Assembly: GCA_963708025.1 (NCBI GenBank)
Contig: CAVPSB010000001.1
Location: forward strand, 1 to 15,211
Source of the DNA: an uncultured Candidatus Rokubacteria bacterium
GTDB lineage: Bacteria > Methylomirabilota > Methylomirabilia > Rokubacteriales > DASRDR01
Direction of reading: 5' to 3'
Length of the DNA: 15,211 nucleotides
This document shows positions 10,446-15,211 of the stretch, in pieces. Position 1 is the first letter of the stretch; every line of letters starts with the position of its first letter. The position numbers were made by a program, and so were the translations under genes. The notes below the pieces were generated by a model that saw only the letters and a program-made list of their open reading frames with translations, made no database searches and had not been told where the DNA came from.

Positions 10446-12082
10446 ATGTCCACTCCCGCGCGCGACCTCGCCGATCGCTACTGGGACGGCGTGCTGGAGG
10501 TCAACCCGCTGCTGGCAACTTTGGTGGGCGACGAGCGGTTCGACGACCGCCTGCAGGATCTGTCACCGCGCGGACGGGAGCGGCGCGAGGCGGTGCACCG
10601 CTCCGCGCTGCAGGATCTCGCCGGGATCGACCGGGCGTCGGCGACCCAGGAGGACCGGCTGACGCTCGACCTCGTGGAGACCATGGCCACCCGGGAGGTG
10701 CGCACGCTGGCCCTCGGGTACGACCGCCTCGAGGTGACGGACCACCTGTGGGGGCCGGGGACCCTGTTGGCCGACCTCGGAGTGTTCGCCCAGGGCCACG
10801 ACGCCCGAGCGACGGGACACGCTGGTCCGTCGCCTCGGAGCCATCCCCGCGTACCTGGCCCAGGCGGTGGAGGTGATGGCGGAGGGGGCGGCCACCGGGC
10901 GGGTGGCGGCCGGACTGGTCGTCGACCGGATCATCGGACAGGTCGACCGACTCCTCGAGGCGGGCCCGGAGGAGTGCGCGGTCCTGTCGGCCCTGCCGAG
11001 ACGACGCCGAGGGCCGGACCCGCGCGGTCGAGGCGCTTCGCGACGTTGTGTTCCCCGCGTACGAGACGTACGCGGCCGCGGTCCGCGACTACCGTCCCGG
11101 CGCGCGTTCCGCCCCGGGCCTGGGGTCGCTGCCCGACGGCGACGAGCTGTACGCGGCGCAGATCCTGGGGTTCACCACCCTGCCCCTGACGGCCAAGGAC
11201 GTCCACGAGCTCGGCCTGGCGGAGCTTGCTCGGATCCAGGAGGAAAAGGTCGAGGTGGCCCGCTCGTTGGGGGCGCTCGACGCCGAGTCGGCCGTTGCCA
11301 TGTGGCGGGAGGCCGGGCGTGATTCCTTCGCCTCGCGGGAGGAGATCGTGGCGCTCGCACGGGAGCAGGCGGATCGAAGCTGGGCCGCGGCGCCGCGGTT
11401 TTTCGGCCGCATGCCGGACCGCAACTGCGAGGTCCGGCCCATCGACGCACAGCGCGAGGCCGACCAGCCGGAGCACTACATCCCGCCGTCGGCCGACGGC
11501 TCCCGGCCCGGCGTGTACTACGTGAACACCATCGACCCCACGGCCCGGCCCCGTCACGCGCTGGCCACCACGACGTACCACGAGTCGAATCCCGGTCATC
11601 ACTTCCAGGGATCGCTGGAGGTCGAGGCGGCCGACCGGGCGGCCATCCGCCGGTTCGCCGCCGACCTCATCGGGACAGCCTTCTGCGAGGGATGGGGGCT
11701 GTACTCCGAGCGCCTGGCCGACGAGATGGGGCTGTACGAGAACGAGTACGAGCGGCTGGGGATGCTGGAGATGCAGGCGTTCCGCGCCGCCCGGTTGGTG
11801 GTGGACACCGGGATCCACGCGTTCGGCTGGGACCGCGAGGGAGCCATCGACACACTCGCCTCGTCGGGCATTCCCGCAGCCGTCGCCGCGCGCGAGGTGG
11901 ACCGCTACGTGTCGATCCCCGGCCAGGCGCTGTGCTACAAGCTCGGCCAGTTGGAGATCGAACGCTGGCGGGCGGAGGCGTCCCGCCGGTCGGACTTCTC
12001 CCTCCCCGAGTTCCACGATCGCCTGCTGTCGCTCGGCTCGCTGCCGTTGCCCACGCTGCGCCGCGAGATGGGGGAGGCGTGA
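10446..12082 (+). CDS. DUF885-family protein (putative metallopeptidase-like), with frameshifts near 10800 and 11000
   Basis: NPLLATLVGD..FDDRL, FTTLPLTAKDVHELGLAE, PSADGSRPGVYYVN, YHESNPGHHFQ, FCEGWGLYSE, RAARLVVDTGIH, EVDRY..PGQALCYKLG, FHDRLLSLGSLPL. No signal peptide evident. Confidence 0.88.
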
Positions 12083-13046
12083 GGGCCTTCGTCACCGGGG
12101 GCACCGGGTTCATCGGCGGGCGGGTGATCGCCCGGCTCCGGGAGCGGGGGGACGCGGTGACGGCGCTGGCCCGCACGCCGTCGAAGGCCGGCGCCCTGTC
12201 CGCGCTGGGGTGCGACCTGGCGGAGGGGAGCCTGACCGACGAGGCAGCGGTGCGGAAGGGCGTCGACGGCTGCGACGCCGCCTTCCACGTCGCGGGCGCC
12301 TACGAGGTGGGGATCCCCGAGTCTGCCCGTCCGGCCATGTACGACACGAACGTGACCGGGACAAGGGTGGTGCTCGACGCCGCCGCCGAGGCAGGGGTCC
12401 CCCGCATCGTGTACGTGTCCACGGTGAACGTGTTCGGCAACACCAGGGGACGGGTGGTCGACGAGACCTACGTCCGCCCCGCCGGAGATCCCTTCCTCTC
12501 GTACTACGACGAGACGAAGTTCCGCGCCCACGCGGTCGCCGTGGAGCGCGCGGCGAAGGGCGCGCCGGTGGTGATCGCCCAGCCCGGCGGGGTGTACGGG
12601 CCCGGCGACCACTCCGAGGTGGGGAACCAGCTCGATCAGCTTCGAACCGGAAAGCTCCGATTCGTCTCGTTCCCGGAGCTGGGGCTGAACCTGGCCCATG
12701 TCGACGACATCGCCCACGGCATCCTGCTGGTCGGGGAGCGGGGGAGCTCGCCCAGTCCTACGTGCTGGGCGGGGAGATCACCACGATGGGCCAGGTGCTG
12801 GCGAAGGCCGCCGCCATCCTGGGCCGGAAGCCTCCCCGGCTCACCATGCCCACCCCCCTGATCAAGTCCGCCATCCCGGTGGCGCCGTGGTCACCAAGAT
12901 GCTGGGCGTGGCACCCGAACCTCCGGGAGCTGATCTCGGCTGCCGACGGCGTGACGTACTGGGCTACCGACGAGAAGGCGCGAACCCAGCTCGGCTACGC
13001 CCCACGCGATCTGGAGACCGGCCTGCGGCAGACCCTCCTGGGATAG
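12079..13046 (+). CDS. NAD-dependent epimerase/dehydratase (extended SDR, dihydroflavonol-reductase-like), with frameshifts
   Basis: GTG 12079 overlaps the DUF885 stop (GTGA), after GGAGG. TGGTGFIG, FHVAG, NVTGT, YVST, YDETK (YxxxK), PGGVYGPGD, HVDDIAHG. Frameshift near 12745 and a compensating pair at about 12882-12915. Confidence 0.88.
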
Positions 13047-13055
13047 GGGTCCGGG

Positions 13056-13649
13056 TTGGGTCCCGAGCGGACGCAGCGCGTCGTGCTGGTGCGGCACGGG
13101 TCGACTGAGTGGAGCGAGCGCGGGTGCCACAGCGGCCGCACCGATGTCCCGCTCACGGATGAGGGACGGCGGCAGGCAGAGGCAATCCGACCGTGCATCG
13201 CCGCGTGGCGATTCGCCGCCGTGTTCACCAGCCCGCTGTCCCGCGCGCGGGAGACGGCGGCGCTGGCCGGGTTCCCGGATGCCACGGTGACCGACGATCT
13301 CCGCGAGTGGGACTACGGGGACGACGAGGGGCGAACCACCCCGGAGATCCGCGAGGAACGGCCGAACTGGTTCCTGTGGCGAGACGGCGTCCCGAACGGC
13401 GAGACCCTGGCGGACGTCGGGGCTCGCGCGGACCGGATGGTTGAGGCCGTCCGGGCGGTCGACGGGGACGTGGCCCTGTTCGCCCACGGCCACGTGCTGC
13501 GGATCCTGACGGCCCAATGGCTCGGACTGGAGCCCGGACGGGGAAGGAGCTTCGCCCTGGGCACCGGGACCATCAGCACCCTCGGGTACGAACGCGAGGT
13601 GCCGGTGATCATCGAGTGGAACGTGGCCTGCCGGCCCGACCCGAAGTGA
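13056..13649 (+). CDS. Histidine phosphatase family protein
   Basis: VLVRHGSTEWS, SPLSRARETA, LREWDYG, PNGET, FAHGHVLR motifs. TTG start uncertain. Confidence 0.9.
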   Translation: MGPERTQRVVLVRHGSTEWSERGCHSGRTDVPLTDEGRRQAEAIRPCIAAWRFAAVFTSPLSRARETAALAGFPDATVTDDLREWDYGDDEGRTTPEIREERPNWFLWRDGVPNGETLADVGARADRMVEAVRAVDGDVALFAHGHVLRILTAQWLGLEPGRGRSFALGTGTISTLGYEREVPVIIEWNVACRPDPK

Positions 13650-14598
13650 CGGGCCGGGCGTCCTCTCGGATCACCTCGATGACATCGTCTTCGTCCAGGG
13701 GGTGGTCGCGCCCGACGAGCTGACCGGGAAACCGGACCGAGGTGCCCCATACGTGCGCTCCTCGACAGCTCCCGGCCAGCTCGCGGTGCAGATCGCGTCG
13801 GCGACGTCCACCACGGTGGCGCCCGGATGGACGGCCATGGGATCCGCCGACTCCGAGCCCGGCCGGCGAGTGAACACCCGCATCAGCCCGGTGAGCCGCC
13901 AGACTGCGTCGCGGGAAATCGCACCAGGCTGGCGTCGTCGAGAATCGAAACGAGCACGACCCCCAGATCTCCGGCCGCGAGCCGAAGTCGCGCGATCGCC
14001 CGGCGGCGACGGCTTCGTCTGACCTTCGTCGCGGCGAGGAGGGCCGGACGCGAGATCCCCGCCGCGTCGACCTCGGCACGGACCTCCTCCAGCGCGCCGA
14101 ACGACGCGGACGCCTCGTGGCAGTACACGATGGCGTCGGCGCCCCGGAGGACGCCGAGGAGCGCGCGACCCCCTCCGCGGTCCTCTCCTGCGCCGGAGAT
14201 GAGGCCCGGGATCTCTACCAGTTGGACGGGAAGGCCCTGGATCCGCGTCACGGCCGCGACCGGCCGGAGCGTGGTGAACGGATAGTCGCCGGTCTTATCT
14301 GGATGTTCGAGAGCGCCTGCAGGAGCGAGGACTTGCCCATGTTCGGCGCGCCGACCAGCGCCACCTGTGCGACGCCCTCGCGCCGAACCGCGATCGAGTC
14401 GCGGTGCACCACCCGGGAGCGGACGCGGGTCCGTTCGATCTCTCCGAGGACCCACTTGCGGATGTCGGCGTAGGGTCCGTTCTTGTAGTCGGGGAGATCC
14501 CGCAGGATGGACCTGAGCTCGCGCACACGGTCGGTCCCGTCCTTCCCCACGAGCCGTCGCTTGATCAGCTGCATCTGGACCTGATGTGGCATGGGCAC
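13609..14598 (-). CDS. DRG/OBG-like TRAFAC GTPase with C-terminal TGS domain, frameshifted
   Basis: GTG 14598 lies 8 nt after AAGGAGG (alternative ATG 14592). N-terminal helical segment, then VRREGVAQVALVGAPNMGKSSLL (G1), GDYPFTT (G2), VQLVEIPGLISGAGEDRGGGRALL (G3 region), TKVDE (G4, after removing one base near 14020) and TGS-like MRVFTR...GATVVDVADA.HRE...AHVWGTSVRFPGQLVGRDHPLDEDDVIEV. Frameshifts near 14297, 14020, about 13990-13890 and 13790. Confidence 0.85.
13631..13657. terminator. GC-rich hairpin at the convergent phosphatase/GTPase junction
   Basis: ccggcccg (13631-13638) and cgggccgg (13650-13657) form an 8-bp inverted repeat spanning the phosphatase stop. No U-tract. Confidence 0.35.
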
Positions 14599-14795
14599 GA
14601 CGCGTTCCTCCTTCGTCGAATGCGGGAGGAGCGGATCACTCGTGGATACCGGACCGTGGGTCCGGCGTCGAGACGCGTGCGCCTGCTCCCGCTGCTTCCC
14701 CTGACGCGTGGTGGGAAGCAGCGGTCTAGCCGGTTTGCCTGAGCACCTCCAGGCGCCAGCGCGCTTCGCGACGTTGTGCCACGGCCGGGAGTTTA
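14596..14795 (-). promoter_or_regulatory. Putative promoter plus structured attenuator leader of the GTPase gene
   Basis: TAAACT 14795-14790. Perfect 12-bp hairpin 14724-14713/14700-14689. 7-bp hairpin 14665-14659/14655-14649. Anti-SD TCCTCC 14630-14625 complementary to GGAGGA 14611-14606. Alternative pairing GCGGGAG 14692-14686 with CTCCCGC 14628-14622. Confidence 0.65.
14726..14782 (-). CDS. Putative 18-aa leader peptide MAQRREARWRLEVLRQTG
   Basis: GTG 14782 to TAG 14726. The start is 7 nt after a TAAACT hexamer and has no Shine-Dalgarno, as expected for a leaderless transcript. Followed immediately by a 12-bp hairpin. Confidence 0.55.
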   Translation of the reverse strand: MAQRREARWRLEVLRQTG

Positions 14796-14798
14796 CGC

Positions 14799-15211
14799 CT
14801 ACGAACCGCCGGCGACCACGGCCAGGACCGCGACGACGACGTAGATCGCCCAGCGCCCCGGCCACCAGCATCGTGCGCAGCGAAGCCGGGATCGGCGACT
14901 TCCCGATGATGAAGTACAGGATCGGCCCGATCAGCGGCAGCAACAGGATGACCAGCATCCAGGTGATCTTCCGGCGGTTGGCCAGGTCCTCGCGCCGGAT
15001 GAGGTCCCAGAACGCCACGGCGATCCACGCCACCAGGAGGACGAGCGGCATCAGATACGCGTAGGTGGTGAGCAGGAGGCTCCACCACGTCGGAGCGGCG
15101 AGGAACGAGATTCCGAGCACGGTGACCTCCCTGGATCCCTTGGGGCCTTCGATGTCGCGCAGGCCGAGCTGCTGCACCGTCACGTTGCCGGGGACCGCGA
15201 CCTCGGGGGCC
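14799..15211 (-). CDS. Membrane protein with C-terminal PLDc_N (phospholipase D/nuclease N-terminal)-like domain; 5' part lies outside the window
   Basis: LLVAWIAVAFWDLIRREDLANRRKITWMLVILLLPLIGPILYFIIGK fits the PLDc_N pattern. Removing one G from the run at 14849-14851 gives a final TM helix GALAIYVVVAVLAVVAGGS ending at TAG 14801-14799. Confidence 0.7.

Follow-up and report, generated by a model that had tools for sequence, protein, structure and literature searches.

A conserved upstream reading frame with one invariant tryptophan codon as a candidate leader peptide of a bacterial DRG/Rbg-like GTPase gene

Here we describe a short upstream open reading frame (uORF) and the RNA structure that follows it, which lie on the minus strand ahead of a gene for a DRG/Rbg-like GTPase on a contig assigned to an uncultured Candidatus Rokubacteria bacterium (CAVPSB010000001.1). 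The window, by which we mean the whole 15,211-nucleotide (nt) stretch that was analysed, is the entire contig C1 (15.2 kb) of an 8.2-Mb assembly with an estimated contamination of 8%, and its G+C content is 72%. The reading frame and the gene that it precedes are laid out as follows.

14790..14795, minus strand: -10-like hexamer TAAACT, 7 nt 5' of the uORF start (sequence read and comparative box count)
14726..14782, minus strand: leader peptide uORF, MAQRREARWRLEVLRQTG followed by the stop, 18 codons, GTG start 14782-14780, TAG stop 14728-14726 (sequence read; homologous reading frame in 78/81 loci)
14756..14758, minus strand: invariant Trp codon W9 (TGG in 75/75 leaders)
14729..14737, minus strand: codons of the C-terminal tripeptide Q16-T17-G18, in the family Q/K - N/T/H - G (conservation in 75 leaders)
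13669..14598, minus strand: DRG/Rbg-like GTPase gene with an MMR_HSR1 G domain and a C-terminal TGS domain, GTG start at 14598, broken by frame changes near 14297, 13915 and 13797 (Pfam; tblastn)

The uORF translates as (M/V)AQRREARWRLEVLRQTG, with five Arg residues (positions 4, 5, 8, 10 and 15) and a single Trp at codon 9, the codons of R8-W9-R10 being 14761-14753. An earlier reading of this DNA, made from the letters alone (hereafter the sequence-only reading), had described an 18-codon leader with five Arg, one Trp and R-W-R at codons 8-10, and it is present exactly as noted there. By itself such a frame is unremarkable at this G+C content: R/K-X-R/K occurs by chance in 36% of the stop-free 18-residue windows in the six frames of the window, at least five Arg occur in 24% of them, and 132 stretches of 10-30 codons run from ATG or GTG to a stop; the uORF frame itself continues open for 120 codons further upstream. 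Its significance thus lies wholly in its conservation in related loci.

Conservation of the uORF ahead of the GTPase gene

A scan of species-representative genomes yielded 80 loci with the GTPase (58-85% identity across the first 102 residues), or 81 with the window; they are labelled mostly as Actinomycetota (Gaiellales, Acidimicrobiia) and Chloroflexota, and as all of these relatives are contigs of metagenome-assembled genomes (MAGs), mis-binned contigs are possible among the taxonomic labels. A TGG codon, nine sense codons and a stop lie 82-185 nt 5' of the GTPase start in 78 of the 81 loci, the distance from W to stop being fixed in these 78, and this conservation bears out the earlier proposal that a genuine leader peptide stands before the GTPase. 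Seventy-five leaders have an evident in-frame start, and these (70 unique peptides) are the set for all peptide, hairpin P1, helix P2 and ribosome-footprint counts below. They start with ATG (65) or GTG (10) and encode 13-27 residues with a variable N-terminus. Trp is found in 75/75, its UGG being the sole invariant codon. Counted from W, position +7 is Q in 48, K in 16 and R in 7; position +8 is N in 43, T in 13 and H in 9; and position +9, the last residue, is G in 68, H in 6 and F in 1. A stop then follows (TGA 40, TAG 31, TAA 4) and never a sense codon. As judged from these alignments, constraint is concentrated on the W, the C-terminus, the stop and the geometry.

The start of the uORF is marked as well. 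A TANNNT box lies 4-11 nt 5' of the start codon in 66 of the 75 leaders, as opposed to 15 of 1464 control positions (1%), while several low-GC Chloroflexota leaders carry purine-rich runs resembling a Shine-Dalgarno (SD) sequence before the start instead. A generic scan for sigma-70 promoters and terminators returned neither (0 and 0) at 14500-14950, and the lack of a terminator there makes transcription attenuation unlikely. The uORF transcript is probably leaderless or nearly so, starting at or next to the GTG, which would explain why no SD precedes that codon. Fusion of the uORF to the GTPase by read-through or frameshifting was considered and rejected, since the stop-to-start distances are variable and not multiples of 3.

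A few loci depart from the common layout. L056 has a plain promoter and SD with no uORF, the preceding coding sequence seems to extend up to the GTPase start in L069 and L084, and in L023 the uORF lies 276 nt upstream with P1 at its usual place, a possible insertion lying between.

Pairing in the leader RNA and the position of the ribosome

Between the uORF stop and the GTPase start the leader RNA holds the following elements.

14689..14724, minus strand: hairpin P1, a 12-bp stem of CCGCTGCTTCCC (14724-14713) and GGGAAGCAGCGG (14700-14689) that starts 1 nt after the TAG (pairing and covariation)
14701..14712, minus strand: P1 loop (14712-14701) with the conserved GCGTC at 14707-14703 (sequence read)
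14686..14692, minus strand: P2 5' strand GCGGGAG, its first four bases (14692-14689) being the outer end of the P1 3' arm
14674..14685, minus strand: 3' arm of a long-range helix, pairing with the R8-W9-R10-L11 codons at 14761-14750 (12 nt, 83% complementary)
14649..14665, minus strand: inner hairpin P3 (CCGGACC / GGTCCGG), enclosed by P2 (minimum free energy folds; sequence not conserved between loci)
14622..14628, minus strand: P2 3' strand CTCCCGC, four bases of which (14628-14625) are common with the anti-SD arm
14603..14633, minus strand: SD-sequestering hairpin of CGCTCCTCC (14633-14625) and GGAGGAACG (14611-14603), 9 nt, 89% complementary
14607..14613, minus strand: GTPase SD, AAGGAGG (sequence read)

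The 12-bp hairpin that the sequence-only reading had placed next to the stop is real, and it belongs to the family as a whole: P1 is found in 74 of the 75 leaders, with a stem of 9-14 bp that begins -1 to +4 nt from the stop, and its loop carries GCGTC in 70 of these 74. Across the 75 leaders 93.7% of the P1 cells are paired, with compensatory exchanges (pair 45:77 is CG in 53 and UA in 22; pair 46:76 is GC in 46 and CG in 29). When P1 and a pseudoknot of its loop were tested jointly, 91.6% of cells were paired, a level that 0 of 500 shuffles equalled and that compares with 41-56% in slid controls. The partner of the loop would be a GACGC just 3' of P1, for which 87.4% of cells are paired with weak covariation (UA 56, UG 14, CG 2), and a P1-loop pseudoknot or an alternative pairing is possible. 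In Chloroflexota-type leaders (for example L037, 2311-2512) GCGTCC and GGACGC both come in two copies; the uORF has them in its R-R-P and D-A codons, the P1 loop and the segment directly 3' of P1 supply the others, and these repeats permit several mutually exclusive pairings, including a local hairpin within the uORF.

P2 follows. Its outer helix (GCGGGA with TCCCGC) is paired in 89.4% of cells across the leaders and shows compensatory change (80:178 is GC in 65, AU in 6 and GU in 4), and folding the window leader with a ribosome stalled at the stop yields P2. As P1 and P2 have 14692-14689 in common, full P1 and full P2 would compete. With 14628-14625 likewise common to P2 and the sequestor, the helices of the window have the classical 1:2 / 2:3 / 3:4 layout.

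The resting leader pairs the SD of the GTPase, with covariation, which is a trait of SD-unmasking attenuators. A consensus fold computed for the 11 closest leaders contains the SD hairpin, and among 72 leaders the best partner of the SD is the P2 3' strand in 38, mostly Actinomycetota-type, and the T-I-S codons of the uORF (ATCTCC with GGAGAT) in 20, mostly Chloroflexota-type. Own partners pair better than swapped ones in both sets (-16.7 vs -14.0 kcal/mol for the P2 strand, -14.3 vs -12.3 kcal/mol for the uORF codons), and 0 of 5000 permutations equalled either value, permutation and Wilcoxon figures here overstating independence because the sequences are related. P2 and the sequestor were tested in this way, as named structures with permutation, because MAFFT misaligns the variable middle of the leader.

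The long-range helix has fared less well. The sequence-only reading had set R-W-R inside it, and the helix does exist (14761-14750 with 14685-14674), but covariation gives it no support, as 73% of its cells are paired in the 11 closest relatives and 138 of 500 shuffles are as good. The segment at 14674-14685 is homologous to a GGACGCG stretch able to pair with the P1 loop or with inner P2. Rfam covariance models matched no leader (window 13500-15211 at E up to 10; five orthologous loci at E up to 1), and the covarying RNA motif described here is absent from that database.

We then folded each of the 75 leaders with a 30-nt ribosome footprint masked at successive positions, as a thermodynamic model of where a ribosome would open the SD. 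The mean probability that the SD is unpaired is 0.27 in the free leader, 0.28 with a ribosome at the start codon (up by more than 0.1 in 6 leaders and down in 5), 0.32 with W in the A site (13 up, 3 down) and 0.42 when Gly occupies the P site and the A site holds the stop (35 up, 3 down). In the window leader the corresponding value is 0.31 when free, 0.15-0.18 with codons 1-10 in the P site (0.15 for W9), about 0.26 for codons 11-15 and 0.55-0.58 for codons 16-18. In these models it is at the end of the uORF, and not at RWR, that a ribosome would act, which accords with the fixed W-to-stop spacing, the conserved C-terminus and the abutment of P1 on the stop. Stalling at the stop codon next to the hairpin, which the sequence-only reading had listed as an alternative, is the reading that the evidence favours.

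A proposed switch at the end of the uORF and its rivals

From these observations we infer, with somewhat better than even confidence, that the uORF is a genuine leader peptide, translated from a probably leaderless transcript, and that an RNA switch lets it govern translation of the GTPase; we read it as a regulatory leader peptide on a gene family for which no such regulation was known before. While the leader is at rest, in the closed state, the P2 3' strand would pair with the SD of the GTPase in Actinomycetota-type leaders, the window's among them, and the T-I-S codons of the uORF itself would do so in leaders of the Chloroflexota type. A ribosome on the last codons or the stop would melt the base of P1 or the helix of uORF and SD, giving the open state; in the window, melting the base of P1 would free GCGG, P2 could then be completed, the anti-SD strand captured and the SD opened. 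With the ribosome so placed, Q/K-N/T/H-G would occupy the peptidyl-transferase centre and the Trp, which precedes the last residue by nine positions, would lie far inside the exit tunnel, and together they probably lengthen the stay at termination. GTPase output would in this way report the dwell time of the ribosome at the end of the uORF.

What lengthens that dwell is a further matter. Our leading guess for the signal is translation stress, possibly relieved by the GTPase itself; after translation stress with GTPase feedback we would rank an antibiotic or other ligand, then the supply of Trp-tRNA and lastly constitutive coupling. By analogy with SecM, which reports SecA activity, we tentatively suggest that the uORF could be a monitoring substrate, its intrinsic pause (with Trp lodged in the tunnel, Q-N-G in the catalytic centre and a hairpin or pseudoknot as roadblock at the stop) being resolved by the GTPase, such that a shortage of the GTPase would prolong the pause, open the SD and restore the protein. 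If true, a DRG-family GTPase would here have its first natural stalling substrate and its first homeostatic circuit, both in bacteria. The role of DRG/Rbg proteins on the ribosome is debated and their bacterial members are essentially unstudied; because the conserved leader travels with the GTPase across at least two phyla, expression of the GTPase appears tied to the state of the translating or terminating ribosome. The leader also offers a compact natural test system for the translational problem that the GTPase addresses (less than 200 nt, with one invariant Trp and one stop), and would extend the few known Trp-dependent arrest or termination-pausing peptides by a new family, which is probably leaderless.

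Several results weigh against this proposal, besides the overstated independence of the permutation figures. P1 and P2 overlap by just 2 nt in Chloroflexota-type leaders, so their competition is not universal. RNAalifold recovered P1 and scraps only, without P2, from 22 Chloroflexota-type leaders, and from 37 mixed 3' segments it returned no pairs and hence no sequestor. The modelled opening of the SD is modest, with a change below 0.1 at the stop position in 37 of the 75 leaders. The ratio of nonsynonymous to synonymous change (pN/pS) in the uORF is low (0.39) in the subgroup of the window alone, against 0.60 and 0.89 for two further subgroups and 0.92 overall, and the codon-position entropy of the leaders shows no 3-periodicity; selection on the peptide is thus visible only at W and the C-terminus, and the nucleotide conservation of the uORF may be due in part to RNA pairing. 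The GTPase stands without the leader in three of the 80 loci (L056, L069, L084). Alignment of the window's GTPase gene to three orthologues places indels near 14297, 14024/14002, 13925 and 13793. Finally, a search of sequencing runs for the leader found no RNA run with the sequence and only soil-metagenome DNA contigs in which it has a small share.

The main competitor at the outset was an antibiotic-arrest motif. R/K-X-R/K (+X+) leaders such as ErmDL are of the macrolide-arrest type, and the sequence-only reading took R8-W9-R10 for a macrolide/ketolide motif of this kind, at which a drug-bound ribosome would stall and thereby induce the GTPase as a resistance factor. The window leader is alike in being a short Arg-containing leader before an inducible gene, and its peptide happens to hold R-W-R; RWR is also the commonest triad around the Trp, R follows W in 39 of the 75 leaders, the RWRL codons of the window are able to pair with the segment just 3' of P1, and the cassette, like many resistance genes, has a patchy distribution and seems mobile. 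The W is invariant, but R/K-W-R/K is found in only 19 of the 75 leaders (15 of the 70 unique peptides) and is missing from the other 56, so the motif is not conserved in orthologous leaders and the proposal does not survive the comparison. Other triads include AWR (10), AWA (7), AWY (7) and AWL (5); the residue before W is A in 34 and R in 24, the one after it R in 39, L in 12, A in 8 and Y in 7, and any +X+ between W and the end of the peptide occurs in 10. Given the chance frequency of +X+ noted above, a modelled stall with W9 in the P site that leaves the SD shut (0.15 vs 0.55-0.58 at codons 16-18), a helix over RWR without covariation, and a fixed nine-codon spacing and conserved C-terminus that are left unexplained, we regard drug-dependent arrest at RWR as highly improbable. 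More generally, in high-GC DNA a +X+ reading of Arg-rich short reading frames is unreliable without comparative data. A drug could act elsewhere in the same architecture, a ribosome-targeting antibiotic or small molecule inducing the pause at the uORF end together with the nascent chain, with the GTPase as a protection or rescue factor. The leaders of erm, msr and hflXr are precedents, and the cassette is patchily distributed and self-contained; in addition, a preprint reports that yeast lacking Rbg1 is sensitised to anisomycin, with Obg rescuing the loss (10.64898/2026.05.13.724932). The idea of a rescue factor, already raised by the sequence-only reading, is reasonable in that the closest solved relatives of the GTPase, Rbg1 and Rbg2, are ribosome-associated. 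The neighbourhood holds no link to resistance or biosynthesis genes, PADLOC returned only P-loop-level noise and no known-resistance family matched, and we hold a drug-induced pause at the uORF end to be rather doubtful.

A sensor of Trp charging, in which the ribosome would stall at the invariant UGG when Trp-tRNA is scarce and remodel the leader as in trp attenuation, would account for UGG being the sole invariant codon, for a second W three codons upstream in 5 of the 75 leaders (WW in one) and for the 13 of 75 leaders whose SD is modelled as more open when W occupies the A site. Most leaders have a single Trp codon, the modelled effect is far weaker than that at the stop (means of 0.32 vs 0.42) and negative in the window (0.15), no functional link joins Trp to a DRG-type GTPase, and the fixed W-to-stop distance, Q-N-G-stop and P1 abutting the stop go unexplained, which makes such a sensor unlikely. 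A slightly weaker candidate still would make the RNA itself the operator, P1, its GCGTC loop and P2 binding a ligand (a riboswitch) or the GTPase in autogenous repression, with the uORF secondary. Autogenous repression is known from ribosomal-protein and thrS leaders, the TGS domain of the GTPase may bind RNA, and the near-invariant GCGTC loop with the GACGC after P1 (87% pairable) suggests a pseudoknot; the covariation of that pseudoknot is weak, Rfam has no match, and the invariant Trp, the constant presence of a stop, the in-frame start with its box and the stop-to-P1 spacing are left without an explanation. We give very little credence to the last rival, in which the uORF encodes a functional micropeptide that is not a cis sensor, for instance a partner of the GTPase like the DFRP of eukaryotic DRGs: it co-occurs strictly with the GTPase, and eukaryotic DRGs are described as needing partner proteins, but a peptide of 13-27 residues with a variable N-terminus and high pN/pS, set in a tight geometry with P1 and the SD pairing, indicates a role in cis. 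No DFRP-like partner is known for the present GTPase.

The pause at the end of the uORF, which we prefer to these rivals, has parallels in known leaders. Conserved residues at a fixed distance from the stop, the trait of termination-arrest leaders (TnaC, PepNL, SpeFL), are found in 78 of the 81 loci. In E. coli, TnaC acts as a sensor of free L-Trp for the tna operon, depends on D16 and P24 and blocks Rho-dependent termination. It likewise has one essential Trp, some ten residues before its last residue, and, as proposed for the present leader, it keeps the ribosome at the stop codon, the dwell time setting expression; the present leader, in contrast, ends in Q/K-N/T/H-G, uses any of the three stops and apparently acts by unmasking an SD. 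Unmasking is the principle of SecM-secA and ErmCL-ermC, where a ribosome arrested on an upstream reading frame breaks up the helix in which the SD of the following gene is hidden, and SecM further resembles our proposal in having a critical Trp about ten residues before its P-site Gly and in monitoring the activity of the factor it regulates. SecM and ErmCL differ in stalling at sense codons, in being SD-led and in regulating secretion or methylase genes, while the four-segment layout described here abuts the stop codon. PepNL of E. coli is described as a short uORF that arrests at its own stop without an inducer and regulates a downstream gene, an N-terminal mini-hairpin blocking RF2 at UGA until Trp-tRNA read-through relieves it (PMC11890864); it has no sequence likeness to the present leaders, which use TGA, TAG or TAA. 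The leaderless polycysteine short reading frames of mycobacteria, which 10.1101/834739 describes as attenuators of downstream genes at the transcript 5' end, offer a parallel as short frames of actinobacterial type that are leaderless, as the present one probably is; there the signal is Cys supply, read through runs of Cys codons, in place of which the present leader has a single invariant Trp, a C-terminus that is conserved and an RNA of elaborate, covarying structure.

The GTPase, its neighbours and the distribution of the cassette

By sequence the GTPase is closest to yeast Rbg1 and Rbg2 of the DRG family rather than to Obg, YchF or HflX: its best matches among solved structures are Rbg1 (1.7e-26; 4a9a, 7rr5) and Rbg2 (4.3e-26; 7nrc), with Obg at 1.8e-14. 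It shares with DRG/Rbg GTPases an Obg-type G domain followed by a C-terminal TGS domain, and differs in being bacterial and shorter, its orthologues having 302-309 amino acids against 366-410 for the matched Rbg chains, a length that suggests that the S5D2L insertion is missing. No NCBIfam model reaches its cut-off for the protein. A preprint (10.64898/2026.05.13.724932) treats Rbg/Drg as archaeal and eukaryotic, and neither this leader nor regulation of a bacterial DRG was found described in a literature search that did not extend to supplements. In all loci the GTPase begins with M/V-P-M-P-H, encoded by a duplicated ATGCC (window 14587-14598, minus strand) that gives two possible in-frame starts two codons apart, and these columns are among the few invariant ones in the leader alignment.

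In the window, tblastn with an intact orthologue of 309 amino acids recovers residues 1-308 in four colinear pieces in frames -2, -1, -3 and -2. Neighbouring genes show comparable breaks: an NAD-dependent epimerase (11692-13046, plus strand) is split between frames at 11692-12861 and 12210-13046, and the natural end of the PLDc_N membrane protein gene upstream (about 14800-14860, minus strand), a TAG at 14801-14799, lies in another frame only. Frame changes in the GTPase and at least two neighbours may be assembly indel errors or decay of the whole contig, and the GTPase copy is perhaps a pseudogene; the leader itself is intact and canonical despite the frame changes nearby. The PLDc_N gene and, on the far side of the GTPase, a histidine phosphatase gene are not conserved next to the GTPase in the 80 loci, and an explanation by operon structure or read-through was rejected on this ground.

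The leader itself keeps to the GTPase. A covariance model (R1) of the 3' half of the uORF and P1 gave one strong match (E 1.8e-14 to 1.6e-18) in each of six genomes (6/6), every time just 5' of the GTPase, with the next best match at E above 0.02. Among 151 genomes sampled across the phylum of one carrier the motif occurs in that carrier alone, and among 101 genomes of the carrier's order it occurs in 5 and the GTPase (E of 1e-40 or lower) in 4, all four as adjacent pairs; the fifth motif lies at contig position 1752-1842. The cassette of uORF and GTPase (L006-L085) reaches 70-85% protein identity between Actinomycetota- and Chloroflexota-labelled MAGs and is also found on one contig each with an Acidobacteriota and an Omnitrophota label. 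Its behaviour is that of a self-contained unit with a patchy distribution, and such identity across phyla, together with rarity within the order, suggests horizontal transfer of the whole cassette.

A search with the N-terminus of the GTPase matched 3 of 40 relatives besides the window's own genome, all weakly (E 3.6e-8 to 8.7e-4), while the nearest orthologues sit in unrelated soil MAGs, and contig C1 may be a contaminant or a horizontally acquired piece. The genome of the window carries a second DRG-like gene for a GTPase with a TGS domain, on contig C31 (L005, 1417-2472), which is intact at 351 amino acids and about 36% identical; the region upstream of it holds no Trp uORF and no R1 motif. 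This paralogue lies directly 3' of a histidine-kinase gene, with a TAGAAT box and a small hairpin upstream.

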